Shown: piece by piece, positions 12,840-59,114 of the stretch
Layout: each line of letters opens with the position of its first letter
How positions within the stretch are numbered: position 1 is the stretch's first letter
Virus record (IMG/VR): IMGVR_UViG_3300027374_000001
Direction: 5' to 3' (one strand)
DNA: 64,000 bases
From: a virus
Taxonomy: Duplodnaviria; Caudoviricetes
The notes under the pieces: model-generated
Database searches by the model: none
Seen by the model: the letters and a program-made list of their open reading frames with translations, nothing else
Told to the model about the DNA's origin: nothing
Position numbers and translations under genes: made by a program

Positions 12840-12895
12840 TTCCCTAAACCTCCTTTCGTGCATCCTTATTAATAAGTTGAAGACAAAAAATAAAA

Positions 12896-18351: not shown

Positions 18352-19098
18352 ATGGTTGTGAACGGAACAATGCCCGGAATAGACATAGAATATAATATGG
18401 ACTCAAATCCATGCATCTATTCGCCAAATGCTCAATATGGAATATATTTTAGACAATTTCCAGATACGCTAATAGATGTAGAACTATATAAGGCATTCAT
18501 AGATAATGTCATAAGTAGATTTAGACATTCTAAAACATATAAAAATTACAAATCTTATTTAATGGAATTAGGTATGACGAGGTGTCAAATTTTAGGAAAT
18601 ATAGATAGTGCACAAGAAATGGCAGAAGTCGAAATGCATCATAACTTTCTAACTATATTTGATATTGCTATCCTTATAACTGAGCATCTCGTTAATACTG
18701 TAGGAACAGTAAACACCTTTCAGGTTGTCCATCTATTAAAAGAAGAGCACAAGGCGAATAGAATACCAATAGTAATGCTATCTAAAACAATACATCAGTT
18801 ATATCATTCAAATGACGATTTTGTTATACCTGCTCAGTATTGTTTTGGTTATTGGCAAGATCTACTTATAAGATATCAAAAAGGAATTACAAAGGATATA
18901 GCGTATAAGTGTCTGAATTTTATACAAAAAAGTTTAGAATATCAACAAATATCAGATAATATAATTCCATTTGGTATATTGCAATTAAGAGAAAAAATAA
19001 TGGATTGGAGTGGATTAAATGACGGATTTAAGCATACTTATCCTATCAGTGGGATTAGTACTAATATGTATAATATTAGCAATACTATGGTTAGTTAA
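18352..19098 (+). CDS. HNH-like His-rich protein (248 aa)
   Basis: C...EMHH...LSKTIHQLYH pattern; paralog of 28905-29720; AACT-N6-TA at 18313-18324. Confidence 0.6.
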   Translation: MVVNGTMPGIDIEYNMDSNPCIYSPNAQYGIYFRQFPDTLIDVELYKAFIDNVISRFRHSKTYKNYKSYLMELGMTRCQILGNIDSAQEMAEVEMHHNFLTIFDIAILITEHLVNTVGTVNTFQVVHLLKEEHKANRIPIVMLSKTIHQLYHSNDDFVIPAQYCFGYWQDLLIRYQKGITKDIAYKCLNFIQKSLEYQQISDNIIPFGILQLREKIMDWSGLNDGFKHTYPISGISTNMYNISNTMVS

Positions 19099-20735: not shown

Positions 20736-21374
20736 TTACACTCCTTCGTAAATCATTCCCCTTGTCATCGTTAACTGGTCTTTCAATGCGCTAAAGAATT
20801 TAACCAACTCTGGCGTATTGTTCATAATATCCTGCGGAATACCCGGAACTTCAGATTTAAGTTTCTCGATAGTAGTATCATCTAAGTTGCAAATATATCT
20901 AAGAAACTCAGTATAATCCACCAAGTTATTCAAATATAACAACGTGATATTTCTATCATTAAACTTAGGATTGTACATGAATGCCGTACTTTTGGTTGCG
21001 GTTTGAATTCCATAATTGTACTCTAAGAATTTAAACAAATAACCAATGTAGTCCAACCCATCCTCTGCTTCCGGCATATATATCACTATTCCATAACCAT
21101 TATGCAGACATGCAATAATAGCCGAAAACATTTCTGTAGCCGCTTTAGATGCCAACGACGCAAAATAGGCTTGTACAAATCCTCTTTCATTCCCATCGAC
21201 ATGCATTGCTAATGCATTATAATCTGGTACAAATGATGACGCCACTACAAACTTATCTAAAATTTCTTTAGGGACTGCAGACGAGTCCCCGACGAAGATA
21301 ACCTTAAACCCCTGTAGTAATGCATCATTTACAACATTGGGATCTTTAGTGCCCATAATCATGTTTTTAATCAT
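20736..21374 (-). CDS. hypothetical protein (212 aa), C-terminal RGMIY
   Basis: AGGAGG SD; operon context. Confidence 0.75.
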   Translation of the reverse strand: MIKNMIMGTKDPNVVNDALLQGFKVIFVGDSSAVPKEILDKFVVASSFVPDYNALAMHVDGNERGFVQAYFASLASKAATEMFSAIIACLHNGYGIVIYMPEAEDGLDYIGYLFKFLEYNYGIQTATKSTAFMYNPKFNDRNITLLYLNNLVDYTEFLRYICNLDDTTIEKLKSEVPGIPQDIMNNTPELVKFFSALKDQLTMTRGMIYEGV

Positions 21375-21385
21375 TTCTGTTCCTC

Positions 21386-23332
21386 CTAATAATTTTCTAC
21401 TATTTGCATCTTTTCTTCTTCTGTTATCTGGCTTTCATCTCTTCCATGAATAATCAATTTAGAAGTGATGCTTCCGCCCCCTTCCACTGGAGCAGAATAA
21501 TATGCCTCTCTAATCTTTTTACCCACTACGGTTTCCACATTAAAGCTGCTACTCATCCGGCTAACGTCTCTCTCTCCTTTAGCGCTTTCTTCAATGCTAC
21601 TCTGAGGGATATTTTTTCCAGTGGGTTTTTCTGAAACATCAACTTCAATAGCTGTAGATTCTATCGGATCTATAGAATCATCATACACAGTCCTTTCATG
21701 AAGATTTAAATCTCTTTCTTCTTCAGCAGGAAGAATCTCTTCAGCTTCTACTCTTTCTATTTCTTCTTCCTCCTGATCATGAAGTTCACTATCAGAATCA
21801 TCCATAGGCAATTCTTTTCTGGAAGAGTGGCTCAAACTTTCAGTCTCAGTCGTTTCTACAGCATTTTCATCCTTAGATACGCTGCCTTTATCTTCGCTGT
21901 TGTCATTTTTTTCATTTTTAACTTCATGGTTATTCTTTTTAGAATTAGAATCTGGTTTCGCTGTAGAGGTAGCCTTTCTAAATCTTTCCAACTGCGAAGG
22001 AATCAACGTAGCAATTACCGTACCATTTGTGCACTCAATGATTAATCCATTACTTAAATCTACTGCGGCCTCTAACTGAGCAGAATCGTCTACCTCTTCT
22101 GGATCTTCTAACTTCTCATTTTCTTCAAATGATGGAGTTAACGAAACACTGGTCTCAACAGTTTCTTCCTTAGGAGTTTCCTGCTCATCTTTTTGAACTT
22201 TTTCATGCAGCAAAGCTTCCAGTTCAGTTCCTCTAATCTGCTCCTTAATACTCTCTGGAATTGGGAGTTTAGCCTGTGTATACTGTGCAATGACATCGCC
22301 AAGGTTTGCTCTCACTGGAGGTTGCTCTGAATCCTTTTCTACCTTAACAAAATTTTGATGAAATCCCGCAAGATTTCTATCGCCAGTTTTAATAACAGGA
22401 AGATTTGTATTATCTTTATCAAGACAGTTCTCCGTAACTAGAGTGATGTTGTTGAGCCTTCCGCTCTTAATACCATTCTTGATAGTATCTACTGCTCTAC
22501 GAGTGTTTCCTAACCTGCTTACTACTTCATTACCTCTCATTAAAGAAATTTTCATTTTATCGTCCTTCCCTTCTACGATTATTTTTGCATCTTCATTTTT
22601 AACCGTTTTTAAGTCCGTAGCGATGTATCGCTTTCCACATTTCTTACATACTAAATCATTATATCCAATGTCATAATCTATTTCACCTAAACATGCAAGA
22701 TTTGTTATAGGGTCAACAGTATTGCATCTTAATTTAGCTCCATCTAGCTCATACACGTACGGATAATCTAATAGCACTGGGCCAAAGCAGTTTCGTATAC
22801 CATAATTCTGATAGTATTTCTCTCCTATATCATCTATGACATATTTGCCTATAAGATTATTAATAAGATTAAATACGTCATCAGCTATAGATAAAAATTC
22901 CTCTCTATACGTAATCGGAACTACCCTCTCAAACATTCCTACAGTACCGCATGGAGTAACATCAAAACACTTTGTTACAAAAGGTTTTAATAAATGCTGA
23001 TTAACCATTTCCATAGGATTGTCTCTGCATCCGACTTTATCTATAGCTATTTTTAATACAAAACTATAGTCATCCGCAAATCTATATACTACACGATTTG
23101 TCCCAGATGCCATTTTTACAAAACCTCTATTCATCATTATATTATTAATAAGACGATATTTCTCATTAGGTTTTGTAGATAATTTAATTGAAGTCGCTAT
23201 ATTGTTAAGATGTGCTATATCTTGCAAAGACAAATAACACAAAATTGGTGGATGAAATAAATTGTCAAAATTAAACTCACTAGCAGTTTTAGCTTTTGGG
23301 TAAAGTAACTGCAATGCATCTGACCTATTCAT
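21386..23332 (-). CDS. protein-kinase-like fold protein with Zn ribbon and long acidic tail (648 aa)
   Basis: ASGTNRVVY, VLKIA, N..E, DDIG...NYG and LLDY map onto kinase subdomains; followed by C..C/CKKC and a Glu/Ser-rich disordered C-half. Confidence 0.65.
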   Translation of the reverse strand: MNRSDALQLLYPKAKTASEFNFDNLFHPPILCYLSLQDIAHLNNIATSIKLSTKPNEKYRLINNIMMNRGFVKMASGTNRVVYRFADDYSFVLKIAIDKVGCRDNPMEMVNQHLLKPFVTKCFDVTPCGTVGMFERVVPITYREEFLSIADDVFNLINNLIGKYVIDDIGEKYYQNYGIRNCFGPVLLDYPYVYELDGAKLRCNTVDPITNLACLGEIDYDIGYNDLVCKKCGKRYIATDLKTVKNEDAKIIVEGKDDKMKISLMRGNEVVSRLGNTRRAVDTIKNGIKSGRLNNITLVTENCLDKDNTNLPVIKTGDRNLAGFHQNFVKVEKDSEQPPVRANLGDVIAQYTQAKLPIPESIKEQIRGTELEALLHEKVQKDEQETPKEETVETSVSLTPSFEENEKLEDPEEVDDSAQLEAAVDLSNGLIIECTNGTVIATLIPSQLERFRKATSTAKPDSNSKKNNHEVKNEKNDNSEDKGSVSKDENAVETTETESLSHSSRKELPMDDSDSELHDQEEEEIERVEAEEILPAEEERDLNLHERTVYDDSIDPIESTAIEVDVSEKPTGKNIPQSSIEESAKGERDVSRMSSSFNVETVVGKKIREAYYSAPVEGGGSITSKLIIHGRDESQITEEEKMQIVENY

Positions 23333-24117
23333 TATCCAGAATTTCGCGGGTCAGCCATTAAATGAGCTAAAAATGCCGCTTTCCTTTCTTGATAAGAATT
23401 CCTCAAATGAGGTGGCAGTTGTACAGTCATATCATCCACTGATACATTTTCTCTTAGACTTGCAAAAGAACTTCTATGCAGATTAGTTAGCTGGTTAAAG
23501 CTTTCGCTATCATATCGGTTTCTTATATTCTTCCGCATTTCTCTAACGACTTCATTTTGCATAATTTCCATAACTTCTTCTCCGGCAGTATCCATAAAAT
23601 GCTGGAATGACTCATCTACCGGATGCTTTGCAGTGTTCTTATTAAACACTTCTTCCATCTTGCTTTGCACATAAATATTACGAGTAGGGACATAATTCAT
23701 AGATATTGTTGCTAATCTCCCCATCTCACTATAATCATTAAACTCTTGTATTATGTGCGCATAAGTATTTGGATTGTAATATTTTTCCAAATATTCATCT
23801 GTAACTTGGTCTAAACCATTATATTTGCAATAAACCTTGTTCATCTGAACATTGGTTTTTATATAATTATCTATCGCCTCCTTCTCGGCTTTTTGACGCT
23901 CTTCCTCCATTCTTCTTATTTCTGATGGGTCATAATATTGATAATTTCCGGAATAATATCCGCCAAATCCAAGATTAGAATTATATCCTAAACCTCCTAT
24001 ATTACCTATATTTTGTGGAGGAATATAATAAGGATTAACTGGAGGGTTCATAAAGTTTTGCACTGTTGGAGACGAATAATTCAAACCGCCTCCATTGTTT
24101 CCTACATAACCCAGCAT
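23332..24117 (-). CDS. hypothetical protein (261 aa), low-complexity N/G/Y/P-rich N-terminus
   Basis: AAGGAG SD; early-type promoter at 24129-24145. Confidence 0.75.
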   Translation of the reverse strand: MLGYVGNNGGGLNYSSPTVQNFMNPPVNPYYIPPQNIGNIGGLGYNSNLGFGGYYSGNYQYYDPSEIRRMEEERQKAEKEAIDNYIKTNVQMNKVYCKYNGLDQVTDEYLEKYYNPNTYAHIIQEFNDYSEMGRLATISMNYVPTRNIYVQSKMEEVFNKNTAKHPVDESFQHFMDTAGEEVMEIMQNEVVREMRKNIRNRYDSESFNQLTNLHRSSFASLRENVSVDDMTVQLPPHLRNSYQERKAAFLAHLMADPRNSG

Positions 24118-24128
24118 AATATTCTCCT

Positions 24129-24145
24129 TTCATTAGTATAATATA
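24129..24145 (-). promoter_or_regulatory. early-type promoter TATATTATA-N4-TGAA
   Basis: Exact motif match. Confidence 0.7.
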
Positions 24146-24175
24146 TCACTAGGTTATTTTTTCAAAGACAAAAAA

Positions 24176-24209
24176 TATAGCAATAAGCCGTGTTAGGCTT
24201 ATTGCTATA
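24176..24209 (-). terminator. intrinsic terminator
   Basis: TATAGCAATAAGCC...GGCTTATTGCTATA stem, then TTTTTTGTC on the minus strand. Confidence 0.8.
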
Positions 24210-24241
24210 GATATTCAATTTCAATTTCTAGACCGCACGAA

Positions 24242-24634
24242 CTATTTCAGTTCGTCAAGCATTCTCTGCAGCTCTTCGTCAGAAGCCTGTTCCAATGACT
24301 TATTGTTACGCTCAGCCATAATGGCCATGATCTTCTGCCGTTTTGCTCGATTTTCTGCTTCTTTTTCCTTATTTTCCTTTTCTTTTAATTTTACGGCAAC
24401 AATATGCTTTATAATAGCAATCTGAATATCAAGAGACTCGTCTTCTTTAGATTTATCTCCTAACAGGCTTTCTTCCGATGTTTTAGCCCTCTTTTTTGCA
24501 TTGATCTCTTTAAACATCTCGTCCAAATCAGTTACAGGAAGATCCCACAAATCTTCAACTGATATAAGCCCCCTAAACAGAAATCTCATTTTGTTTCTTG
24601 TTGCGTACTCAAATACATTAATTTCTGATGTCAT
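24242..24634 (-). CDS. conserved phage coiled-coil protein (130 aa)
   Basis: FEYATRNKMRF..RGLISVEDLWDL N-terminus and coiled-coil C-terminus; AGGAGG SD. Confidence 0.7.
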   Translation of the reverse strand: MTSEINVFEYATRNKMRFLFRGLISVEDLWDLPVTDLDEMFKEINAKKRAKTSEESLLGDKSKEDESLDIQIAIIKHIVAVKLKEKENKEKEAENRAKRQKIMAIMAERNNKSLEQASDEELQRMLDELK

Positions 24635-24653
24635 TTTAATATTCCTCCTTAAT

Positions 24654-26714
24654 TTAAAATTTTACTTTCATTATCTTTTCATCTTTGCCTTTAACCTTAA
24701 CGATAAGTTCTGCACGCTCCGTCATACTAAATCCAATCCCAGAGAGTTGATTTTCTGTATTCGCTACTTTGCACTTAGAGCCCAATGCTTCAAATACTCT
24801 TTTGTAACCATTAACCAACTCTGATTTTAAGAATTCATTATAAAATCCATTAGGATTTCCTTCGTTGACACATCCATTCAAGAAGAAGAACAAATGCTGA
24901 TGTCCTATACCATTCTGATCATCAAAATAATTTGGACTATAGCTGATACAGTTTACCGGAACAAATTTATTAGTGCGGATACCCCATACTTCTTTCGACA
25001 GCGGCCTAGATTTAAGATGCTCTGTTATCATGAACTCTCCACTTTTATCCAACACAACTTCTGCTACTAAAATATTCTGTCTAGTAGGGATTGGATAATT
25101 ATATTCAAATTCATAAATATTATTATCAAACTCAATCTCTGCTCTAAATCCTTCAGAATTTCTAGCCGCAAATTGATTAACAAAAAATACATACTTACCC
25201 GGCGTCATATGCGATTTATTTCTATATATAATATTCTCTACAGATGGTTCTCCGGGGCGCTGAATAAATGGGTCGGTTATGTCAATGTCAAGAGTCCCTC
25301 CATTAGGAGATAATCTTCTATTCTTACCACAAAAAGAACCAAAGTAAATTTCTGCTCCTCCTGGCTCTAAAGCATGAGCATCAAGGTCGCTATTATCTTT
25401 TGTGCTATCATTCCACTGGATAGAGAATCTAAGTGCTCCATTTACTTCTCCTCCTGCGTCTTTCACGTTTTGCCTTATACTGGATGTAACGTTACCGTTA
25501 TATGCCCAACTTAAAGGATTATTCCATTTAAATAAAGATTTTGCATCTCTATTTACTGGGGCAATCATAGAAACCAAATTCCTGACATGCCTATTTTCCA
25601 TAAAAACTTCGATTTCCTTTGAAGATGGAATGACTTTTTCTATAAAATCTTGTACCGCGATCTCCTCTACACGAGAAAACTGTTTAGGATCAATAGAAAC
25701 TTCAGATTCTAATTCTCCAAATACATCGTTTGCAACTGTAGTAATATTAGTTGCATTTCTATTCGCAAACAATACGTTGTTTATGGTGATATCATCAATG
25801 TTGGCATACCGTCGTGGTAAGGAATCTATATATCCGAGCTCGGTAACTGTGTTCCTGGCATCTTCAAGCATTTTCTTACTGAATATAGCCTTCGGCCGTT
25901 TATAATTAGCGGGAGCCATAATAGATTCATACTTTCTTACTGCCGTATCTAAATCCACCCCTTCGCTTATATCAGTAAGTAGAGTTCCGATACTATGGTT
26001 GCGTATTCTTGATAAAACGTCCCCTGATCTCACAGAATGATACCATGTAAATATGTCTTTCTCATTTTCCAACTGAGAAAGGGATGCAAATTTCTCCTTA
26101 AGCCGTTTAAATGTCATAAGAATATACCTATTCTCTGCACCTCTATAAAGTGTATTAGAATCTATAAGCTCTAACACGGTATCCACTGAGTCTGATGTGA
26201 TCTCCTCAAGAGATCTCTTAAATACATTTTTGCTATCTCTATATTTTGCTTTTACAGTTTCTACAGTAACCTTAGATTGCAGAATGAATTTGTCTGGAAG
26301 GTCGACATAAAAATGGTTATACTTGATGGGTTCATCTCCTACCATTCCGAAATTCTCCTTGACTCCTATTCGTTTAAGCTTGCTAAAGAATACATCAACG
26401 ATTTTATATCTTTTAACAAAATCAGATAATGCATCTACAACGGGCTGCCAACTTCCTGCATCAAAATCCCATAATGTAATGATTTTGTAATCTTTGATAG
26501 CAACGACATTTCCAAATTGTTTAATAAAATGCCTACAATGTGAACAGTCATGAACACGATTTGTTCTATAAATTTCATTATCCCCATCCGGAAAACTGTT
26601 AAGATATAAATCATACAATTCGTCACAGGGGGCATCAACCACAAATAAATGACCACAATTTGTCATATCATTAAAATGCTCGATTAAACGGTTTCTAAAA
26701 TCTTCAAATCTCAT
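24654..26714 (-). CDS. conserved phage protein with YfaP/DUF2135-like domain (686 aa)
   Basis: DLDAHALEP..EIYF..GTLDIDI..VENI..GKY.FFVNQF resembles YfaP-like domains; HDCSHC near the N-terminus. Confidence 0.55.
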   Translation of the reverse strand: MRFEDFRNRLIEHFNDMTNCGHLFVVDAPCDELYDLYLNSFPDGDNEIYRTNRVHDCSHCRHFIKQFGNVVAIKDYKIITLWDFDAGSWQPVVDALSDFVKRYKIVDVFFSKLKRIGVKENFGMVGDEPIKYNHFYVDLPDKFILQSKVTVETVKAKYRDSKNVFKRSLEEITSDSVDTVLELIDSNTLYRGAENRYILMTFKRLKEKFASLSQLENEKDIFTWYHSVRSGDVLSRIRNHSIGTLLTDISEGVDLDTAVRKYESIMAPANYKRPKAIFSKKMLEDARNTVTELGYIDSLPRRYANIDDITINNVLFANRNATNITTVANDVFGELESEVSIDPKQFSRVEEIAVQDFIEKVIPSSKEIEVFMENRHVRNLVSMIAPVNRDAKSLFKWNNPLSWAYNGNVTSSIRQNVKDAGGEVNGALRFSIQWNDSTKDNSDLDAHALEPGGAEIYFGSFCGKNRRLSPNGGTLDIDITDPFIQRPGEPSVENIIYRNKSHMTPGKYVFFVNQFAARNSEGFRAEIEFDNNIYEFEYNYPIPTRQNILVAEVVLDKSGEFMITEHLKSRPLSKEVWGIRTNKFVPVNCISYSPNYFDDQNGIGHQHLFFFLNGCVNEGNPNGFYNEFLKSELVNGYKRVFEALGSKCKVANTENQLSGIGFSMTERAELIVKVKGKDEKIMKVKF

Positions 26715-26759
26715 CTTTCATTCTCCTTATCTTGTATTAATTATTAAAAAGTTTTAGAA

Positions 26760-27380
26760 TCAATAAAAAGGTAATCTCATTGATTCAAAAATTTCATATA
26801 TGGACTCATAATATCCAATCATATTTGACGGGCTCATATTTTTAATGATATTAATCTTAAGTAAATCATTATTAGTGATACTATTTATATTCCTACTAAA
26901 TGAAGTTGTAAATGCATTGTACAGTCCAGCAGCCAATTGGACCATTCCATCTTCATCATATATAAAGTAATCAAATGTAGTTTCACTGGAAATTGCATTA
27001 TTTAGGGTATCATTAATATCATTAAATACATTTAGGAATATATTTCTGCCCATAATTTCATTTTGAATAAGTTCACTATGGGTATAATACATTGATACCT
27101 TGTGTACACACTCATCGAATTCTTCTCTAAACAGAAATACTAATCCGCTTAATATTTGAGTATATGGAATTATCGTGCCTAAGTCAAATGCATATCTATT
27201 ATATATATACATATTAACTCTCAATTCCATTAAGTCTATGCCACAAGTAATTGCTTGTTCAAAATAATCCAATACTTCTCTTTGTGTCACGACAGCATTT
27301 AAAATTTCTAAATCTTTTAATTGTGGTGGGCCCTTTGGAAACATGAAATCCTCTCCTTTTTCATCCATATATATCATCAC
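26760..27380 (-). CDS. hypothetical protein (206 aa)
   Basis: ORF with AAGGAG SD. Confidence 0.7.
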   Translation of the reverse strand: MMIYMDEKGEDFMFPKGPPQLKDLEILNAVVTQREVLDYFEQAITCGIDLMELRVNMYIYNRYAFDLGTIIPYTQILSGLVFLFREEFDECVHKVSMYYTHSELIQNEIMGRNIFLNVFNDINDTLNNAISSETTFDYFIYDEDGMVQLAAGLYNAFTTSFSRNINSITNNDLLKINIIKNMSPSNMIGYYESIYEIFESMRLPFY

Positions 27381-27387
27381 TCCTTCT

Positions 27388-28068
27388 TTATATATTTAAC
27401 AGATATCTATATCTGTTAATATCAAATGTATTTGCTCCATATTCTAGAACAGAGAGCTTCTCTATATCTTTTATAGATAAATTCCTTATAAAATTCCTAG
27501 TATTATTATCTATCATATCATTATATTTCATTATATGAATAGCAATACTAGTAGAAATCTCATCTCTGAGCATATTAATCTCTTTAAATTTATCTATAAA
27601 TTCCTTTACCTCCGCTTTATTATTCGGATTGAAATGCCCTCTATTATGATAAAGACTAACTTCTAGATTGTTCTCCAATATAGTAAGTACAATACTCATT
27701 ATGATAGATTGATGAGTAACTTCTTTATTAGAAGAATTTATAAAGTTATAATCTTTAATATTATTTACCCATTTGAATATCCATTCCCTTAATGAGTAAA
27801 CACTGATCATAGAATCAGAGAATATATTTATCACTTTCACATTACTTCTGTATTGTAAAGCAAACTCTACTGCCATTTTAATAGCATAGATTTCAGCCTG
27901 GTTATTTGTGCTGTCTCTCAATGCTATAATCTTCTGATTAACTATTTTATCTCCAACCACTGCTACAAATCCCGGAAGACCTATAGTTTCTCCCCTAATA
28001 TTTTTTGTAGAAGCATCAGTGAAGATATTTAAAGTGTCAGAATTAAAAATTTCATGATATCTAATCAC
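27388..28068 (-). CDS. ribonuclease HI-like protein
   Basis: IFTDAS, TNNQAEIYA, IFSDS, HNRGH and NDMID are the RNase HI catalytic motifs. Confidence 0.85.
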   Translation of the reverse strand: MIRYHEIFNSDTLNIFTDASTKNIRGETIGLPGFVAVVGDKIVNQKIIALRDSTNNQAEIYAIKMAVEFALQYRSNVKVINIFSDSMISVYSLREWIFKWVNNIKDYNFINSSNKEVTHQSIIMSIVLTILENNLEVSLYHNRGHFNPNNKAEVKEFIDKFKEINMLRDEISTSIAIHIMKYNDMIDNNTRNFIRNLSIKDIEKLSVLEYGANTFDINRYRYLLNI

Positions 28069-28079
28069 TTTTCCACTTC

Positions 28080-28289
28080 CTATTCTATTTCATATTCGAT
28101 TTTACGATCATCAAGATATGCTTTTATGATATCAATTTGGTCGTCCGTAGGTCTAATTACGTGAACTTTACCACGGTTAAACGAGTCCACTATAAACCAG
28201 GCATCAACTAATTTTCTTAAAAGATCAGAAAATTTTATAGCTGTTTTATGGTCTTCAAAAACAAAAACCACATTTTTTTGTACATCCAT
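28080..28289 (-). CDS. small hypothetical protein (69 aa)
   Basis: GGAGG SD; first gene after the early-type promoter at 28322-28338. Confidence 0.7.
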   Translation of the reverse strand: MDVQKNVVFVFEDHKTAIKFSDLLRKLVDAWFIVDSFNRGKVHVIRPTDDQIDIIKAYLDDRKIEYEIE

Positions 28290-28321
28290 ATTTTTTATCC
28301 TCCATTTTACACGATTATTTT

Positions 28322-28338
28322 TTCATTTATATAATATA
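28322..28338 (-). promoter_or_regulatory. early-type promoter TATATTATA-N4-TGAA
   Basis: Exact motif match. Confidence 0.7.
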
Positions 28339-28369
28339 TAATTATTTTAAAATCAAAAAACAAAAAAGA

Positions 28370-28399
28370 TTTCCGGTGCGCGGGAAGACGCACCGGAAA
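28370..28399 (-). terminator. intrinsic terminator
   Basis: TTTCCGGTGCG...CGCACCGGAAA stem with a minus-strand T-tract. Confidence 0.8.
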
Positions 28400-28494
28400 G
28401 GCTTTTATAAAATACAATAAAATGAAAGATAAGATCAATGCATAATCATGAGAGGATTATTTCTTATGCATTTACCATAAGGTTAGGTATATTA

Positions 28495-28863
28495 TTATTT
28501 CTTACAAACGGTAATGTCATCACAATGCATTAAAGCATTCAGATCTAATTTATTAATACACGATTCATCAACGACCACGCATACATTTTCAAGCTGAATC
28601 TTATTGCACATAGCAATTTCAGACATAGCCTCGTTAAATGTAAGCTGCTGATCTTTCATCAGTCTTTCTATGTTCCCAGAGAATTCTACATAATATTTAT
28701 ATCCGTCCCCGTTTACAACAACCTTCTCCGGCGTAAACCCAGTAAGATGTCTTACAGACTCTGATACAGGTTTCATCTTTGAAAACACTTCAATGTTTGC
28801 ATCTTCCATAGATATAGGCATACCAAATTCTGATTCAAGCATAGCACGAACAGTTTCTTTCAT
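28495..28863 (-). CDS. hypothetical protein (122 aa), late-type promoter
   Basis: AGGAGG SD; AACA-N6-TA at 28893-28904. Confidence 0.75.
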   Translation of the reverse strand: MKETVRAMLESEFGMPISMEDANIEVFSKMKPVSESVRHLTGFTPEKVVVNGDGYKYYVEFSGNIERLMKDQQLTFNEAMSEIAMCNKIQLENVCVVVDESCINKLDLNALMHCDDITVCKK

Positions 28864-28904
28864 GATTTTAAATTCCTCCTAATTCTTAAAATTAACTATA
28901 TGTT

Positions 28905-38467: not shown

Positions 38468-38491
38468 GGGGTACGGTTTAAACCGTACCCC
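38468..38491 (+). terminator. intrinsic terminator
   Basis: GGGGTACGGTTT-AAACCGTACCCC followed by TATTCTTTTTTGTC. Confidence 0.85.
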
Positions 38492-38508
38492 TATTCTTTT
38501 TTGTCTCG

Positions 38509-38520
38509 AACATTTCATTA
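38509..38520 (+). promoter_or_regulatory. late-type promoter AACA-N6-TA
   Basis: AACA-tttcat-TA; the motif recurs upstream of many structural genes. Confidence 0.65.
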
Positions 38521-38547
38521 ATCTACCTTAGAAGGGAGGATAATGAA

Positions 38548-51045: not shown

Positions 51046-51051
51046 GATTAA

Positions 51052-51079
51052 AGGAGTAGGAGATTGTTCTCCTACTCCT
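51052..51079 (+). terminator. intrinsic terminator
   Basis: AGGAGTAGGAGA...TCTCCTACTCCT plus ATCTTTTT. Confidence 0.75.
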
Positions 51080-51101
51080 ATCTTTTTAGGAGGATAATAA
51101 T

Positions 51102-52622
51102 ATGCCGAACAAATTAGAAGCTGCTGTAGCAGTGCCTAAAGATCAAAATAATAAATTATCAGAAAAAGAGCAAATAGCTAGGGATGTACTAGATCAGCAG
51201 CAAAATATATTAGAAGCGTATTTAACGGATGAAGCAGTTAAACGTTCAGATGAAACAGTTGTGTCTGGACTTATGACTCATAATTTAAATGGCATATATG
51301 GATTGCCATATCAGTTTATGACTAATGTAGATCCTGTATTAACTGGTACCCAATTTGGAAGAAAATATGCAGAAAGAATAATTAGTAAAATGCCATTATT
51401 GCTTGTAACACCCGGAAAGGTTAGATTTATGAGTAACTTTTCTAAAGAAGAACAAACTGGAATATTAGCCGATTTAATTCAAGTGGGAAAGGGTCTTAAT
51501 GTAGAAACCGATATAGATAGTATAATAAAGGACAATGGTAAATTTTTTACCTTTGAATTTGCTTATACTGAATATTTTGATTATGTAAATGCGATATGCC
51601 GTACAGGAGCAAGATATTTAGGTATTCAAGATGTGGTAATGGATATAGGCGGAAAACAAGCAACTGCAGATAAGTTTCAATGGCAAAATGCTTTAAATTC
51701 TGATTTTAAGGCTACATTCACATCTCAAGAGTTCATTGCATTTTATATGGACTCTTCAGATCAGGTATCTGAAGAGTTTAGCAACGAAACAACTCAATCT
51801 CAACTTGCTAGTACAGTAAACGGAATGTCTGATTTGGGTAGAGAAATAGGATTCTTATTAGGTGCTGGTGCTGGAACTACATTTGAATGGATGGATCAAG
51901 CTGCCTTAGATTCTACCATGCAAACTATTGATGAATTGACTAATAAATATCTTAACGGTTCTAATATCATAAAGAATATAGCGAATAATTTTGCTACAGT
52001 AGCTTGTGGTGGTAAATTATTATTTCCAGAGATATGGGCAGATTCATCGTTTTCTAGATCATTTGATATTACCATTAAATTGAGAACACCTGATCCTAGT
52101 GTTATGGCGTGGTATACTAATATATTTGCACCATTGGCTCACCTCATGGGGCTTACCGCTGGGCATACTGAAACTGCAGCCACTCAATCTGCGCAATCGT
52201 ATTTTTCTCCATTCTTAATTAGAGCTTTCTATAAGGGGTTGTTTAATATAGAAATGGGAATAGTAACAAGTATGAGCATAACTAAAGGTAAAGAATCTGC
52301 TTGGACAGTGAATGGTTTACCTACAGAAGTAGATGTGTCATTAAGTATTAAAGATTTATATAATATGATGGCTATAACTCCTGGAACAAAACCAAAATAT
52401 TTTGTGTCCAATTCAATACTGATGGATTATATAGCTAATACTTGTGGGGTTAATATAAATAAGATGGATATTCAAAGAACGTTAGATATTTATCTTATTC
52501 TTACCAGTAATAGAATGACTGACATACCAAATAAGATTCACAGTAAACTGCAAACTAGTATTGATAATATGGCAATGCGAGTATACGATGCCGCAATTAA
52601 CAAACTATTGCCTAATCTGTAA
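51102..52622 (+). CDS. putative baseplate/tail-tube cap-like structural protein (506 aa)
   Basis: FPEIW..SRSFDITIKL..GIVTSMSITKG..NGLPTEVDVSLSIKDL recalls T4 gp48/gp54-type tube-fold proteins; follows the tape-measure-like gene. Confidence 0.5.
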   Translation: MPNKLEAAVAVPKDQNNKLSEKEQIARDVLDQQQNILEAYLTDEAVKRSDETVVSGLMTHNLNGIYGLPYQFMTNVDPVLTGTQFGRKYAERIISKMPLLLVTPGKVRFMSNFSKEEQTGILADLIQVGKGLNVETDIDSIIKDNGKFFTFEFAYTEYFDYVNAICRTGARYLGIQDVVMDIGGKQATADKFQWQNALNSDFKATFTSQEFIAFYMDSSDQVSEEFSNETTQSQLASTVNGMSDLGREIGFLLGAGAGTTFEWMDQAALDSTMQTIDELTNKYLNGSNIIKNIANNFATVACGGKLLFPEIWADSSFSRSFDITIKLRTPDPSVMAWYTNIFAPLAHLMGLTAGHTETAATQSAQSYFSPFLIRAFYKGLFNIEMGIVTSMSITKGKESAWTVNGLPTEVDVSLSIKDLYNMMAITPGTKPKYFVSNSILMDYIANTCGVNINKMDIQRTLDIYLILTSNRMTDIPNKIHSKLQTSIDNMAMRVYDAAINKLLPNL

Positions 52623-52691
52623 AGTATTGTTTTAAAGCCTCTGAAACATTTCAATATAATACGGATTTTGTAAGGCGTAGGGGGTGATAAT

Positions 52692-53420
52692 ATAAAAAAT
52701 AAAAACCGTAGTCAAAAAGCTAAAGAATATGCTGCTAAATATTCTGAGATTCCTATAAATTATGAAGAAAGACTATCGTGGATGGTAGATCATTATAATT
52801 TATCCGAATCTAAGATGGAAGAAATAATAAATAAAAGAGAAAATGTAATAGCTAATATGGTGTTTTTTACTTGTAAAGTGGTTCAGTTATTAGAAATTCC
52901 TGAGGGGACGCATCGTTCTAGATTTAGAATAATAAAGAAGGATAATTATAATAGAATAGCAATGCAAGATGAATTCGTTCATGTGTATACTCCAAATGCA
53001 CAGGATGATTTTAAATATATGCATCAAATGATAGATGAGGAATTAGTTTATATTGATGGATTAATTAATACCCCGTGTATTATAGATTATTATGCATATT
53101 TCAAAACACCATCATATTACAATACAACAGATATATTCTTAGGTGAAACAGGTTTATTCAGGCCCCCCATTGATAAGCCAGATTGGGATAATTGCGGAAA
53201 AAAATATTGTGATATGTATAATCATAACATATGGTTGGACGATGCTTTAGTACTAGATGGAGCAGTGCATAAATATTATTCTATACTTCCTAGAGTAGAA
53301 ATATATCTCAAATATTTAAACTGTACTTATACCAAGGCTCAATATAATAGAATAATAAAAAGAAAAGATTATGATGGAACGGAAATACATTATTTAGATA
53401 GATACGGGAGGCTAGTATAA
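52692..53420 (+). CDS. RusA-like Holliday junction resolvase, probable ATA start
   Basis: KPDWDNCGK..D..IWLDDALV..KYYS..PRVEI is the RusA signature. The frame is open upstream to an ATA 5 nt after GGGGGTG; AACA-N6-TA at 52645-52656. Confidence 0.8.
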   Translation: MKNKNRSQKAKEYAAKYSEIPINYEERLSWMVDHYNLSESKMEEIINKRENVIANMVFFTCKVVQLLEIPEGTHRSRFRIIKKDNYNRIAMQDEFVHVYTPNAQDDFKYMHQMIDEELVYIDGLINTPCIIDYYAYFKTPSYYNTTDIFLGETGLFRPPIDKPDWDNCGKKYCDMYNHNIWLDDALVLDGAVHKYYSILPRVEIYLKYLNCTYTKAQYNRIIKRKDYDGTEIHYLDRYGRLV

Positions 53421-53422
53421 AA

Positions 53423-53827
53423 ATGAACTATGATTTACGTAGACTTATTACTGAACTAAGGATATTTTTTAATAATTATATATATACAGATAAAAATTAT
53501 GCGGATACATTATTAGAACTTATACAAACTAATTCATTCACTCCGGTAGTTTCAGCTGTAATAGAGTATACTTCACCTACACATGTTGTATTAATATTCG
53601 AGAAAAAATACGAGTATAATGTAGATATACGCAATGCTGTTCATTCATTTTATAAGTATTTATTTAGTTCAGGAGATTTAAGAAAATTAATTGAAACTCA
53701 ATATACTGGTGAATATAAAAATGAATTACTACAAATGATCCCGCAAATCAGTGACGATTCTTCTATAATTTGTAATATGTATAATATGACAATGATGGAT
53801 GCAAATATAATGTATATATATCTATAA
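53423..53827 (+). CDS. hypothetical protein (134 aa)
   Basis: GGAGG SD; coupled to the RusA-like gene. Confidence 0.7.
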   Translation: MNYDLRRLITELRIFFNNYIYTDKNYADTLLELIQTNSFTPVVSAVIEYTSPTHVVLIFEKKYEYNVDIRNAVHSFYKYLFSSGDLRKLIETQYTGEYKNELLQMIPQISDDSSIICNMYNMTMMDANIMYIYL

Positions 53828-53833
53828 AAGAGT

Positions 53834-53858
53834 CCCCATGGGAAGTGATCCCATGGGG
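53834..53858. terminator. terminator between convergent genes
   Basis: CCCCATGGGA...TCCCATGGGG stem. Confidence 0.75.
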
Positions 53859-53863
53859 GCATT

Positions 53864-54730
53864 TTATTTCATATCTTCTAAAACCCTTTTAACGTAACTC
53901 TCGTTTACATTTTTTAACTCTAATACATTCAGCATTTCAAGAAATGTATACATCGTAGTTACGTTTCTTCTTATAGCCCGAACATCAAGTTTTCCGTTAT
54001 CTCCGGTAAAAGTTTCAAGCATTGCCTTATCATTGACCGTGCTCTGAGTAGCAAGATTCATCATCTCTTCAAAAAGATTAATTCTTCTATAGTTCTTACG
54101 TCCTTTTATTTCATCTACCTGACGTCTGTACATTTGAACGAATTCTTGTTTAATCTTTTCTTTTTCTTCTTTATTTTTAGCTTTAATATTATCGATCTTT
54201 TCTTTAGTTTCCGCTGCTAATTTATCGAGTTTCTCCTTATCTTCAGCATTAGCTATAGCATAATCTTCTATTGCGCAGCATACGTTTTTATTTATCCTGG
54301 TCGTAATTTCGGGTTCTGATAAGGTTTCAAGCTTTTCAAAGAAATTATCTGTAACAGTTTTACTAATCTTAAATGTAGAAGGATCTGTATCTTTAGCTCC
54401 ATGAACTACAACTCTATGTGTAGATTCTACTGCTTCTGCTATTGATGCTAACAGTACAGATTGACTTTTCATATGACTTAACAGCCTGGGAGTAGTTTCT
54501 TCTGTAACGAAAGATTCGCATAAGAATTTTCCCATCTGATTATTAGCATCTTTTAAGCACGGCTGCAAAAAATAATTCAACGCCTCAGATAATAAATAGA
54601 TTTTGGATTCACTCACAAAATCTGTGTATTTTCTTTTATTTTGCTCCATATTCATAAATCTCTTTCTATCCTGATTATACATTTCTTGTTGAACTCTTTG
54701 TTGTTCAACAGTAGGAATTTCGTAACTCAT
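53864..54730 (-). CDS. hypothetical helical protein (288 aa), late-type promoter
   Basis: AAGGAGG SD; AACA-N6-TA at 54755-54766. Confidence 0.75.
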   Translation of the reverse strand: MSYEIPTVEQQRVQQEMYNQDRKRFMNMEQNKRKYTDFVSESKIYLLSEALNYFLQPCLKDANNQMGKFLCESFVTEETTPRLLSHMKSQSVLLASIAEAVESTHRVVVHGAKDTDPSTFKISKTVTDNFFEKLETLSEPEITTRINKNVCCAIEDYAIANAEDKEKLDKLAAETKEKIDNIKAKNKEEKEKIKQEFVQMYRRQVDEIKGRKNYRRINLFEEMMNLATQSTVNDKAMLETFTGDNGKLDVRAIRRNVTTMYTFLEMLNVLELKNVNESYVKRVLEDMK

Positions 54731-54766
54731 AATTTGTATTTCCTCCTTTTATTTTAAGTATATGTT

Positions 54767-57400
54767 CTAGAGTACCCGTAAATTGATGTCTGGAGTCATA
54801 TCAGACACATTTATACATAAAAACTCTGGTGTTATAGTAACATCATCTTTATCTTGTTTATACAAATGCTGATATCCGGGTCCATACTCATTAAACCCAA
54901 GGAACTCAAAATATTCTATTGAGTTTCTATAGTCATTTGTAATTTGAGTTATAAGGTTCGGTATATGTAAAGAACTCATATCATTGAGATTTTCTACATA
55001 TTGTTTTATATCATGAAGGATATAGTTCTTCGTTTGATTATCAGAAGTTTTAAGTAATCTAACTTCAAAGTTCATTGTTAGATGTATTCTATCTACAGGT
55101 ATTTCTCCATTCTTATCTATAGTGAATATAGTAGAACTACCATAAGTATTAAACAACTTAAAATCAATTAAGAAGTTATTTTCTAATAGATAAATAGCTT
55201 TATCTATATATGCCTTTTCGTAATTGAATTGTTGTACTAAAGCTTGTACATTATCCTCTGTATTTAGATAAGAATGTTTAATCACTGGTACCGATCTAAC
55301 TTCAAATCCATATTCTTCATCATATTCTGTTTCCATAACATTATCTGTTACATGAGAAGACATAATCTGTGAATAATTATAGAAAAATTCTAATCCTCCA
55401 TTTATAGTATACATATTGGTCACAGACCATCCATATGTACCACCTTCTCCATCTACAGGAACAATACTATCTAGATCATATCTACCATACTCATTGTAAA
55501 CTTCGGTAGAAGCTTCAAATTGATATAGCACATATATTCTAGCCTCGACATGACTAGTAAAATATCCATAGTCAGTAGCTAAAGTTCCTGGAATAGATAC
55601 ATTTTTAATGTGAATTTTATTATCATCATTTAGTTTATCTGTAGTTTCAAGGTTGAAGTTGAAGATATATCTGCCGGTCTTCATATTTATATCTATAAAC
55701 TCGCCTTCACAGTATCTATAAGGCTCGGTAGAATCCTCATTATATAAAACCAATATTGTTCTTATCTTATTTCCTATATTAGTACTAGAATCTCCGGCAG
55801 CATCTCCAAGCATAGATATATTTGGAGAGAGCATAATAGATAATTTATAAATATTTGGTTCTGAGAGATATTTTCTACACCACTCTACATAAGTAGCAAT
55901 AAATTGCCTAGTAGCTTGATGGTTGATGTAACTAAATGTGAGCTGAGCCGGATAGTCCATTATGGATAGATAATACGATACATATAGCGGGTCATCGGTT
56001 ACAACTAAAGAAAATGGTATTGTGTAAATATAATTGTGGGTATCGTCCTTTAGCATCTCTATAAGTTTCTCATCATTTTTATCATAAATATGCCCAATGC
56101 CATTTTCCAATACTATATATGAACCAGGCTTTAATACATATTTACGATTATCTCGTGTTGTAAACTGAGATCTTCGTATTTCTATATCAATGGTATTAGT
56201 GGGAACGACGTTATCGTACACATCCTTTAAAACAAGATACGCAAAGTAAGACCTCTCAAATTGGTTATCCACCTTTTTCATTATTTCTATTCTAGTTTTT
56301 TCTGCATCTAGAATCATCATATTGAAATAATTTTTAAGATCCTGCATATTGGTTATACTTCCTCTAGCTAACGCTTCTTTTGGAAGTAATCTTTTTAATT
56401 CTTCTACTGTTTTTCTATCTTCACCTCCGGTTGAACGTTTTGCTGGTCTTATGATAGAATAAACGTTTTTATATTTAAATCTATCTGAAGTCAATTTTGC
56501 ATAAACGATATCGTCATAGTCAAAGTTGCCTTCACTTCCTTTAGTAGTATAAATATATACAGTTATCTCATCATTTAGTTTTGGTAAATATGATATAGAA
56601 TCAAATCTGACTCTTATGGTTTGCTCATCTATGTAAGTATAATAACAATAATCTTTAATATTGTTTTCTATACCCATGCCCTCGAACATCGGAGTCAGAT
56701 AAGTTTCTTTGCCATTTTCATTTACACAAACTTCAAACCCGGCAAGTTGATCAAAGAACGTGAATTCAAAAGTTTTATTATCAATAGAAGAACTTGATAT
56801 AACCTTCTTAGTTTCTGTTTTATGCGTAACCTGCATCAACTGACAGGGGATATATATCATATTTCTTCTTTGGTCTATTTGTACATATGGAGTTGCAGTG
56901 TATGGATTAGTGATTTTACTTAACTCATTTTTCCTGTCTATTTTATATTGAGCAGAATAGGCATATTCATTGTTCGCTATTACTGTACGTATAAGCATCA
57001 AATCATATTCTAAATGAAACTCAAAATCACCAATATTAAATATCATTTCTTTGGTTATAGTAAACACATCAGCAACAAAAAGATCAAATATTTCGTCTTG
57101 ATCTAGTCCTAAATATATAGGTAAAATAGCAGGAGATGCGTTTATATCATTTATATTCTGTATAATTGCATGTGCTATTACATTCTTTTCATACTTGGCT
57201 CTAGATGGCCACAATTCATTTCCGAGTTCTGAATTTATTATAATATCATTTTGTATTTGTTGTGACATCATATCTATGAGGTATCCAAAAATACCGACAG
57301 ATAGAGTGTCTTCCGTCTTATTCGGTATATAAGTTTTAGATACGTCATGTACCATGTCTGTGATATTATAAATACTTGGATCTATAATATTATTAGCCAT
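54767..57400 (-). CDS. baseplate wedge protein (T4 gp6 / baseplate-J-like)
   Basis: NELWPSRAK, YTTKGSEGN and TGGEDRKTVEELK...ITNMQDL match the gp6-like pattern; start at ATG 57400 behind GGAGG. Confidence 0.7.
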   Translation of the reverse strand: MANNIIDPSIYNITDMVHDVSKTYIPNKTEDTLSVGIFGYLIDMMSQQIQNDIIINSELGNELWPSRAKYEKNVIAHAIIQNINDINASPAILPIYLGLDQDEIFDLFVADVFTITKEMIFNIGDFEFHLEYDLMLIRTVIANNEYAYSAQYKIDRKNELSKITNPYTATPYVQIDQRRNMIYIPCQLMQVTHKTETKKVISSSSIDNKTFEFTFFDQLAGFEVCVNENGKETYLTPMFEGMGIENNIKDYCYYTYIDEQTIRVRFDSISYLPKLNDEITVYIYTTKGSEGNFDYDDIVYAKLTSDRFKYKNVYSIIRPAKRSTGGEDRKTVEELKRLLPKEALARGSITNMQDLKNYFNMMILDAEKTRIEIMKKVDNQFERSYFAYLVLKDVYDNVVPTNTIDIEIRRSQFTTRDNRKYVLKPGSYIVLENGIGHIYDKNDEKLIEMLKDDTHNYIYTIPFSLVVTDDPLYVSYYLSIMDYPAQLTFSYINHQATRQFIATYVEWCRKYLSEPNIYKLSIMLSPNISMLGDAAGDSSTNIGNKIRTILVLYNEDSTEPYRYCEGEFIDINMKTGRYIFNFNLETTDKLNDDNKIHIKNVSIPGTLATDYGYFTSHVEARIYVLYQFEASTEVYNEYGRYDLDSIVPVDGEGGTYGWSVTNMYTINGGLEFFYNYSQIMSSHVTDNVMETEYDEEYGFEVRSVPVIKHSYLNTEDNVQALVQQFNYEKAYIDKAIYLLENNFLIDFKLFNTYGSSTIFTIDKNGEIPVDRIHLTMNFEVRLLKTSDNQTKNYILHDIKQYVENLNDMSSLHIPNLITQITNDYRNSIEYFEFLGFNEYGPGYQHLYKQDKDDVTITPEFLCINVSDMTPDINLRVL

Positions 57401-57402
57401 AA

Positions 57403-58578
57403 TTAAATCCTCCATTTGAGTTTATAGGAATAATTCATATCAGATGGACCGTTCCAGTTATCTGGTTTATTCACTCTAACTACAACTGGCATAGTGGCCC
57501 ATCTTCCATCTACCATTCCTTTACTAAAATTAAACACCGGTAAGTCATTTGTATATTTTATGAAATTATATGTGAGATCATTAAAATCTGTTAATATTGC
57601 CGGGTCCAGGTCGTCAAGGAATGCAGCTTCAAAATCAACGGCATAGGTTAATCCACCCTCTGTTTTCATATCAGAAAATGAATCTCGTGGAACCGATTTA
57701 GGAAATACACCCCATAATTTGGCATAGTATATTATGGTTTCACCATCATCTTCTACTATAAATTTATATATAGCAAATTGATCGTGCAATCTTTTTGTCC
57801 TGGTATAGTAATCCATACACACCCCGTTTACTACAGGAGCATTATCTATATTTGGCGGTGTTACCATTCCTATTTTTTTTAATCTCTCATAATTTTCATA
57901 TGCTTTAAATAACTGGTATATCTCTAAATATTTCGTGTCTTCAAACTCTAATGAAAATTGAACTTTTTCATCGGAGTTATATCCAGAGCCTCTATAGCTA
58001 TATGACGTTCCATATATATTAGAAGGAGTATCTATGGTATCAGCAGATATACTTGGTAACTCTAAGGTGTTTTGTACAGCATTAGATAGTACCGCCATAA
58101 ATGGATTACTAGAACTGTATTCTGATGATTTCTGCAATTGACCAATCACGTTACCATATCTTTCTTTTAGTTCTAGAAAGAATGGGCTTCCGTTAAGCTC
58201 ACTATTTAATGTCTTTCTTTGTGGAACTGTAATATGTAAATCTGGTTTTGTAAAAAACAAGTATTCTCTACTACCAGTTACTGCGTTGTAAGGATCCATT
58301 ATTCCAAATCTGCTAAATTTATCGTACCATTTTATATCTATCCTGTCATATATACCATTCGCGTAAAATGTAGGTTGCAAATCTTCAGATATACTTGGTC
58401 TATTACCAATATTTGTATTTGGAACTACCCTATTAAAACCCTTAAGTTCAGCATTAATGGCTGCTAGTGCGCTGCCTATACCCATAGCTTCACTGGGTTT
58501 TAATTGAGGTATTTTAGAAACCACTTTTTTGTTCTTAGGTTGAACTCTGGATTTTAAATTACCTATGACGGATGGCAT
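57403..58578 (-). CDS. tail-tube-fold baseplate protein (391 aa)
   Basis: SLEFEDT..IYQLFKAY..YYAKLWGVFPKSVP resembles T4 gp19/gp54 tube-fold motifs; AACA-N6-TA at 58610-58621. Confidence 0.55.
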   Translation of the reverse strand: MPSVIGNLKSRVQPKNKKVVSKIPQLKPSEAMGIGSALAAINAELKGFNRVVPNTNIGNRPSISEDLQPTFYANGIYDRIDIKWYDKFSRFGIMDPYNAVTGSREYLFFTKPDLHITVPQRKTLNSELNGSPFFLELKERYGNVIGQLQKSSEYSSSNPFMAVLSNAVQNTLELPSISADTIDTPSNIYGTSYSYRGSGYNSDEKVQFSLEFEDTKYLEIYQLFKAYENYERLKKIGMVTPPNIDNAPVVNGVCMDYYTRTKRLHDQFAIYKFIVEDDGETIIYYAKLWGVFPKSVPRDSFSDMKTEGGLTYAVDFEAAFLDDLDPAILTDFNDLTYNFIKYTNDLPVFNFSKGMVDGRWATMPVVVRVNKPDNWNGPSDMNYSYKLKWRI

Positions 58579-58646
58579 TATTTCACACTCCTTCCCTCTT
58601 CAAATTGATTAATTCTATGTTTCGAGGGCAAAATAGTACCAAATTA

Positions 58647-58663
58647 TATATTATAGATATGAT
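58647..58663 (+). promoter_or_regulatory. early-type promoter TATATTATA-N4-TGAT
   Basis: Motif match on the plus strand. Confidence 0.65.
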
Positions 58664-59114
58664 AAAGACTTATTCTAAATACCTTTTCATATAAAACTGA
58701 TTGAATCAGAAATGCTAAATCCAATTACAAAATGTGATTTATCATGTATACACCTCCCCAAATGTACGTTGCCGTTTGGCGTTAAAAAATACAGAAGATT
58801 ACAGGAGGGACGCCATGATAAATTTTGCAAAGGTAGTTGCCGGGGCTATACCGGTCATTACAACTTTAGCATCAATATTACTAAAAGAATCAGACGAGAG
58901 AAGAGATACAATTTCTGTAAAAGAAAAAGCGCCGCCTATGCAGGTTTCACCACCAATACAGCAAAAACAAATTCAACCATTGGTGCCTCAGGATATCAAT
59001 TTAACAGTAAATGTGAATATTAAATTGCCAGATTTTGATAACAAAACTGGTGATTTTTTAACGAGAGGTATGCGTTATTATCCCTGATTAGGGATATCTA
59101 GAATAAGTCTTTAT
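58662..59114. repeat. 16-bp perfect inverted repeat bracketing a small gene
   Basis: ATAAAGACTTATTCTA (58662-58677) and TAGAATAAGTCTTTAT (59099-59114), extendable to about 20 bp with one mismatch. Confidence 0.85.
58815..59087 (+). CDS. small protein (90 aa) with N-terminal hydrophobic helix and C-terminal RGMRY
   Basis: AGGAGG SD before ATG 58815; MINFAKVVAGAIPVITTLASILLK... Confidence 0.7.
   Translation: MINFAKVVAGAIPVITTLASILLKESDERRDTISVKEKAPPMQVSPPIQQKQIQPLVPQDINLTVNVNIKLPDFDNKTGDFLTRGMRYYP

Follow-up and report, generated by a model that had tools for sequence, protein, structure and literature searches.

A terminal RGM.Y peptide on four unrelated proteins of an uncultured AR9-like jumbo phage: a probable lineage-private docking motif

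Introduction

The proteins gp43, gp55 and gp33 of phage T4 have similar motifs at their C-termini, which can replace one another as ligands of a single hub (PMC2988020). The present work deals with a stretch of viral DNA of 64,000 nucleotides (IMG/VR record IMGVR_UViG_3300027374_000001; the whole stretch is called the window from here on) in which a short peptide motif, RGM.Y, lies at or near the C-terminus of four proteins: an alpha/beta protein (P0001), a possibly HNH-like DNA enzyme (P0002), a mini-protein of 39 amino acids (aa) encoded by open reading frame (ORF) C, and a small, apparently membrane-anchored protein (ORF D). We consider it quite probable that this tag is a short linear docking motif, private to its lineage, for one shared phage partner with which it co-evolves.

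The tags resemble the gp45 client tails of T4 and RB69 in being short hydrophobic motifs at the end of a variable flexible linker, common to unrelated replication and transcription proteins of one phage. Unlike the T4 tails, they have a different sequence that is rewritten by lineage, they are found at either terminus, with as many as four copies in tandem, their carriers include a mini-protein and a putatively membrane-anchored protein, and no gp45-like clamp or clamp loader is detectable. The motifs that bind the beta-clamp (QL[SD]LF) and the PIP box that binds PCNA (QxxLxxFF) offer a second likeness, in which many clients bind one and the same peptide-binding site by a linear motif at their N- or C-terminus; however, these motifs are shared by entire domains of life, whereas the tag described here is lineage-private, matches neither consensus and has no leading glutamine. 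A disordered tail peptide also organises many genome-maintenance proteins in the case of the single-stranded DNA-binding protein (SSB) and its tail DDDIPF, but there one hub carries the tail and has many partners, while here the situation is reversed, with many carriers and presumably one partner. Finally, the nuclear import of chimalliviruses (PicA/Imp1) is comparable in that replication and transcription enzymes are selectively gathered with the phage DNA. That import, however, uses surface patches and no terminal signals, and AR9-like phages do not belong to the Chimalliviridae and are reported to lack chimallin (PMC13282480). Our literature searches retrieved no description of such tags in jumbo phages.

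Results and discussion

A six-frame scan of the window revealed exactly five copies of RGM.Y, all of them in the four ORFs listed above, at 2, 2, 3, 3 and 17 residues from the stop codon. P0001 (20736..21374, minus strand) ends in ...LTMTRGMIYEGV and has RGMIY at 20748..20762, three residues before its stop codon. P0002 (28905..29720, minus strand) ends in ...NFVRGMVYEEEPKPNLIRGMVYGTA and carries two copies of RGMVY, the terminal one at 28917..28931, also three residues before the stop, and the upstream one at 28959..28973, 17 residues before it. In ORF C (37697..37816, plus strand), which ends in ...EPKLVRGMIYIS, RGMIY lies at 37793..37807, and in ORF D (58815..59087, plus strand), which ends in ...DFLTRGMRYYP, RGMRY lies at 59064..59078, each of them two residues before the stop codon. 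These ends agree, in the scan and in the translations, with what the preliminary description of the window had reported, and the four proteins have no detectable similarity to one another, as it had also stated. The tails read [LI][IV]RGM.Y. Only one further GM.Y was found in the six frames, within a spurious ORF of 33 aa.

Residue shuffles of the 52-gene set gave a chance expectation of 0.07 copies of RGM.Y (Poisson P 1.3e-8), and the chance that all four proteins carry the motif in their last 25 residues was about 2e-5. The copies are written with different codons (AGG/AGA, GGA/GGG/GGT, TAC/TAT) and the DNA that flanks them is unrelated; therefore, conservation acts at the level of the peptide and not of a repeated DNA element, a terminator or a ribosome-binding site.

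Regarding the carriers, P0001 (212 aa) has a Rossmann-like alpha/beta fold in its AlphaFold2 (AF2) model, with a helical C-terminal part whose last residues, 206-212, are predicted to be disordered (predicted local distance difference test, pLDDT, < 50). Its fold matches generic alpha/beta proteins only (best Z 7.0). P0002 (271 aa) belongs to the family phrog_12252, with a profile match that spans residues 27-207 only, and is a homologue of AR9 gp242, a hypothetical protein. Both of its tags lie in residues 233-271, which are likewise modelled as disordered (pLDDT < 50). The top structural matches of its core are all of HNH type but weak: the GVE2 HNH endonuclease (5h0o; Z 5.5, root-mean-square deviation 2.9, 83 residues aligned), T5 SciA (9qgx; Z 4.4) and McrA (6ghc; Z 3.7). 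Among its histidines H85, H86 and H137 are invariant, H141 is nearly so, and H122 is invariant or nearly so. Pfam gave no HNH match for P0002, and for both P0001 and P0002 Foldseek searches of the models against the PDB were without significant match and phmmer searches against the PDB without any match. From the model, the P0002 core is possibly HNH-like (beta-beta-alpha-metal). An untagged paralogue of P0002 is encoded at 18352-19098 on the plus strand (phrog_12252, E 3e-25); most relatives have two copies of this family, as do AR9, PBS1 and S6, and in the window as in the relative G002 (see below) one of the two is tagged.

ORF D (90 aa) has an N-terminal hydrophobic helix that resembles a membrane anchor, then a Pro/Gln-rich linker, then the tag. 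It is preceded by a strong ribosome-binding site (AGGAGG, 6 nt before the ATG), and its four homologues (75-99% identity) differ in the linker but all have the tail DFLTRGMRYYP unchanged. Scans for promoters and terminators near ORF C and ORF D gave no useful information.

In ORF C a conserved helical head is joined by the linker KGKEPK to the tag LVRGMIYIS. At the same position, the near-complete relative G002 has a 47-aa ORF that ends in ...FIRQKGREPKMTKPFICLHHQ, is similar to ORF C by BLASTP (E 2e-8) and stands just upstream of the orthologues of a 176-aa gene and of the giant gene of the window. We located the 176-aa gene in five more relatives in order to predict the place and the tail of the mini-protein, which was found beside it in all five (G006, G008, G007, G001 and G003). 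The tail matched the tag of the lineage clearly in G006 (KIRPFVYLR; tag KPF), G008 (ITKAFSYFNE; tag AFS) and G003 (VKLVSFLK; tag MVSF), and loosely in G007 (LFNPIMHCVK; tag NPIYHDY) and G001 (YNVPWYID; tag DPPWKI). With G002 among the clear matches, this makes four of six relatives clear and two loose, or five of seven and two of seven when the lineage of the window is included. Held out and taken alone in the six relatives, the mini-protein gave an exact P of 0.03 in a permutation test, a conservative value given that two lineages share the KPF class.

A profile built on the seven mini-proteins retrieved 192 cluster representatives among 1.8 billion proteins, nearly all of them of 35-70 aa. 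They share a head of about 30 residues, [DE]F[IL]..L..M...E[IL]N.[FY]I..KGK.PK, followed by tails that are almost all different: the 5-mers of 121 such tails are almost all distinct. Nevertheless, the tails follow a grammar, [L/P/K]-[I/V]-x-[P, then M/L/A/G]-four mostly hydrophobic residues-polar, to which LVRGMIYIS conforms. A generic position-specific scoring matrix made from the 121 tails was tried as a tag finder and discarded as too unspecific. The head had no significant Pfam or PDB match; a weak likeness to the N-terminal domain of L7/L12 was seen in 8 of the 121 members (best E 4e-4). No mini-protein was found in AR9, and the cultured phages of the collection have no homologue. The orthologues in seven lineages and the 192 clusters with a common head demonstrate that ORF C is a real, conserved gene. 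The preliminary description considered that the 39-aa protein may be little more than the motif; this has to be corrected, as it has a conserved helical head of its own. Because of this head, ORF C may, as far as its sequence indicates, present the tag in the role of an adaptor or regulator.

The window, whose G+C content is about 32%, derives from an uncultured AR9-like jumbo phage. This assignment relies on an RNA polymerase subunit about 30% identical to those of its nearest and very distant cultured relatives (AR9/PBS1, phiR1-37 and Staphylococcus phage S6), together with the lack of any nucleotide-level match in the phage collection. Besides the tagged genes, the window codes for split multisubunit RNA polymerase subunits, virion proteins, a giant protein of 4165 aa, an RNase H and a RusA-like resolvase.

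In uncultured AR9-like relatives the tails keep their place while their sequence is rewritten. P0002 has more than 300 metagenomic homologues whose tails group by clade: the nearest (97-76% identity) read LIRGM[MVT]Y, those of a clade about 55% identical have LIRGVTYD or LIPGIIYVD, in many cases in two copies, and farther clades have KPLFKKI, KPFIKL, PFEFVYG and others. Among the 16 homologues of P0001 the tail passes from TRGMIYEGV through LIKGMSYSK to PL[IV]NG[IV]QYAG. In both families Gly and Tyr are fixed, and Met changes to Val or Ile. Lineage versions of the tag thus include RGVTY, NGIQY, KPFTI, DPPFKI, HDYS and AFSxI. IMG/VR scans with P0001 and P0002 as single proteins gave no match; with profiles, P0001 found nothing in the genome contigs, and P0002 found seven loci in metagenome-assembled genomes that were too distant to show tags.

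When 20-kb loci of IMG/VR relatives were compared, the orthologues of P0001 and P0002 were seen to share a private tail within each lineage: KLIDPPFKI and KLVDPPWKI, respectively, in L061; VIHHDYS and PIYHDYS (twice) in L012/L015; SRNAFSTIV and TPRAFSYI in L002/L004; QKPFVRGV and IKPFTIGR in L005/L006; ITRPFGRG and MTKPFTID in L021/L022. In these loci the private motifs also occur near the N-termini of other proteins, and every match lies at most about 20 residues from a protein end. Permutation tests that compared tail similarity within and across lineages, for three protein families in seven lineages, gave P <= 5e-5. The tails of three families therefore change in concert, lineage by lineage. 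Both of the properties that the preliminary description had proposed to look at, enrichment at C-termini and conservation in orthologues, were thus found.

The widest set of carriers was observed in G002, a relative of 247 kb that is 99% complete and with whose 116-182 kb region the window is syntenic. Of the 34 occurrences of [KR]PF in this genome, 19 are within 25 residues of a protein end, against 22% expected (P 2e-5), and in an unbiased scan of all its tripeptides KPF was the pattern most enriched at termini (13 of 21 occurrences, P 6e-7). The carriers comprise the DNA polymerase B subunit (three copies), a DnaB-like helicase and a superfamily 2 (SF2) helicase (two copies); a PD-(D/E)XK exonuclease with an N-terminal tag; two RNA polymerase beta-like subunits, one of them with four copies; a helix-turn-helix (HTH)-like protein; and, in common with the window, the orthologues of P0001 and P0002 and the mini-protein. 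Several unrelated DNA and RNA enzymes, the replicative polymerase included, are therefore tagged in G002, whereas P0002 is the one carrier in the window that resembles a DNA enzyme. A second apparently terminal pattern of G002, RR.I, turned out to be an effect of composition. Applied to AR9, the de novo scan by which KPF was recovered in G002 detected no terminal tag.

Another aspect to mention is that E-P-K frequently precedes the tag, as in EEEPKPNLIRGMVY of P0002 (28932-28958) and KGKEPKLVRGMIY of ORF C (37778-37792), and also in the G002 tails QEEPKTKPFII and EEPKKLTRPFERL. The recurrence of this prefix in both genomes suggests that what may spread from gene to gene is a portable module slightly longer than the tag.

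The general form of the tag is [L/I/P/K]-[I/V]-x-[P/G/A/M/L]-hydrophobic-x-hydrophobic with a polar residue after it, and it sits on ends, modelled as disordered, of otherwise unrelated proteins. As a docking motif it would dock them to a shared, phage-encoded partner that co-evolves with it, much as the interchangeable clamp-binding tails of T4 gp43, gp33 and gp55 work. The carriers in the window would then be a possibly HNH-like DNA enzyme with two copies, an alpha/beta protein, the mini-protein and a small membrane-anchored protein, and the last two could serve as adaptor, competitor or tether. A single receptor would read the tag. That the tag is private to each lineage and is rewritten in concert argues for a receptor encoded by the phage over a conserved host partner. 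The phage-specific docking peptide put forward in the preliminary description has thus gained strong support from the terminal concentration of the motif, the predicted disorder of the tails, their conserved position and their concerted change in three families; a clamp, a shell, an importer or a protease are candidate readers of the tag.

Several results weigh against the docking motif. For the permutation test on three families, some of the lineages had been chosen for the likeness of their P0001 and P0002 tails, and the unbiased test, that on the held-out mini-protein, is only moderately significant (P 0.03). Within the window no tag was found on the RNase H, the RusA-like resolvase, the RNA polymerase subunits or the virion proteins, and in G002 the positional equivalent of ORF D has the hydrophobic head and the PQ linker but no KPF tag. 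As to the partner, the phage contigs of G001-G003 gave no match to the gp45-type clamp family PF09116; the only hits to it stayed below threshold (E 0.002 and 0.1) and fell on other contigs, in the genome bins G004 and G005. The clamp-loader family PF13177 was absent from G001-G003 (G002 being 99% and G003 93% complete); the same search matched 14 of 14 control genomes, 13 of them above the curated cut-off. Comparative genomics likewise found no classical clamp in the AR9-like phage group (PMC7824862). Moreover, the tails fit none of the known clamp-binding consensus sequences (QL[SD]LF, QxxLxxFF, LDFLF-type).

Two kinds of gene in the relatives bear on what could read the tag. In G006, G008 and G003 the next gene after the tagged polymerase subunit codes for about 200 aa, and in G002 a conserved 198-aa gene lies 1.3 kb downstream of that subunit; the profile of this family found nothing in the PDB by sequence, and a search of the Atlas gave no model for it. 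In addition, a tubulin homologue (PF00091, above cut-off) is encoded in G002 (213358-214572; L114) and in G003 (192780-193250; L113). It is untagged, and in G002 it lies a few kb upstream of a tagged RNA polymerase subunit.

The shared partner might be a divergent sliding-clamp-like processivity factor encoded beside the DNA polymerase, in which case the tag would be a clamp-binding motif and the tagged proteins would ride the phage DNA as a tool-belt. The T4 precedent (PMC2988020) is in favor of this, as are the ~200-aa gene near the polymerase subunit and the composition of the tagged set of G002, which consists of DNA and RNA enzymes, polymerase included, with an HTH-like factor that recalls T4 gp55/gp33. 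However, near-complete relatives have no PF13177 clamp loader and no match to the gp45 family, the ~200-aa family has no sequence match in the PDB, the motif fits no known clamp-binding consensus, and an RNA polymerase subunit with four tandem tags, a carrier with a putative membrane anchor and a DnaB-type helicase would be unusual clients; we regard a clamp as a sensible candidate about which we are, on balance, somewhat doubtful. The tandem tags, the putatively membrane-anchored ORF D and the mini-protein keep a different reading beside it, namely that the tag is an address or retention signal of a replication-transcription compartment or scaffold (a viral factory), acting through a scaffold protein or through multivalent co-assembly, with ORF D as a tether and the mini-protein as a cap or regulator. 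The classes of protein tagged in G002 match those that nucleus-forming phages gather with their DNA (PMC13282480), the two to four tandem copies imply multivalency, the relatives encode a tubulin homologue, and ORF D joins a membrane-anchor-like helix to the tag. On the other hand, the AR9-like phages reportedly have no chimallin and the known nuclear import works without terminal signals, as cited above, no scaffold candidate was found, and the tubulin carries no tag, so that a compartment signal appears rather unlikely to us. A bolder version, in which a large clade of uncultured jumbo phages that encode tubulin has a replication-transcription compartment independent of chimallin and uses the tag as its address code, with a private and rapidly rewritten peptide code, a mini-protein regulator and a membrane anchor, is speculative and we give it a still lower chance; such a private code could also exclude the enzymes of a co-infecting relative.

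Much less probable is that the tag is a degron through which proteins of replication and transcription reach a protease or adaptor at a given time, with the mini-protein as a decoy. Recognition signals of ClpX or Lon are exposed, hydrophobic and located at either end of the protein. The tag has these same features, and the mini-protein could compete for the same site; nevertheless, degrons are rarely kept in two to four tandem copies on essential enzymes, and no phage protease or adaptor could be linked to the tag. In addition, the tag is private to each lineage, unlike conserved host proteases, which makes the degradation tag of the preliminary description, if read by such a protease, unlikely. 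As for the motif being a by-product of a DNA or RNA element shared by gene ends (a terminator, a ribosome-binding site or a mobile repeat), or mere chance, AGAGGAATG does superficially resemble a ribosome-binding site followed by ATG, but the codons and the flanks differ between copies, homologous tags occur at N-termini in the relatives, the peptides covary across lineages with unrelated DNA, and chance is excluded at P ~1e-8; we give this explanation practically no weight.

If the docking motif is what it seems, a clade of gut jumbo phages would hold its machinery for replication and transcription together through a private peptide code, which every lineage rewrites at about 20 sites simultaneously. 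It would offer a natural case in which a motif and its receptor evolve in concert, it could give a handle on the missing hub of a phage group thought to have no sliding clamp, and it may be a mechanism of incompatibility between co-infecting relatives. The short orthogonal docking peptides might also be usable as tools. What the present analysis newly contributes is the four carriers, with a putatively membrane-anchored one among them, the negative result on the clamp loader, and the mini-protein family as a one-gene reporter of the tag of each phage, by which the code becomes easy to catalogue from metagenomes.

Other observations

Candidates for N-terminal tags in the window, MMIY (26760-27380) and MIYNGMKL/MLYNGMKL (13398-14742), were rejected, as their G002 equivalents start with MILMIDE/MILVDEK and look like a folded strand. 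The proteins encoded at 13398-13826, 13816-14742 and 26760-27380, all on the minus strand, have similar short hydrophobic N-termini (MIYNGMKL, MLYNGMKL and MMIYMDE) and are probably a fast-evolving paralogous family with no tag carriers.

Between the polymerase subunit and the 198-aa gene of G002, at 233252-234547 (L106 13252-14547), there are five small, very hydrophobic ORFs of 64-145 aa, a cassette that looks like an inserted block of membrane-protein genes.

The 686-aa protein encoded at 24654-26714 (minus strand) matches phrog_1735 along its full length (E 9e-243). Its homologues, with 35-51% identity, were found in 547 phage records, including Ackermannviridae, Bacillus phage BCP78 and Caulobacter and Vibrio phages, and are nearly always annotated as hypothetical, with a few conflicting labels. 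A role as nuclear shell was ruled out for this protein, given that the family is widespread and present also in Ackermannviridae and Bacillus phages. As it was found in only one of 80 related 20-kb loci, its gene looks mobile or patchily inherited.

An HNH endonuclease gene (10954-11586, minus strand) stands between the genes of two RNA polymerase beta-prime-like subunits (9299-10825 and 11604-12863). The order is alike in G002, where 170266-170811 is flanked by 168872-170263 and 171321-172658. This arrangement suggests an old homing-endonuclease insertion at the place where the subunit gene is split.

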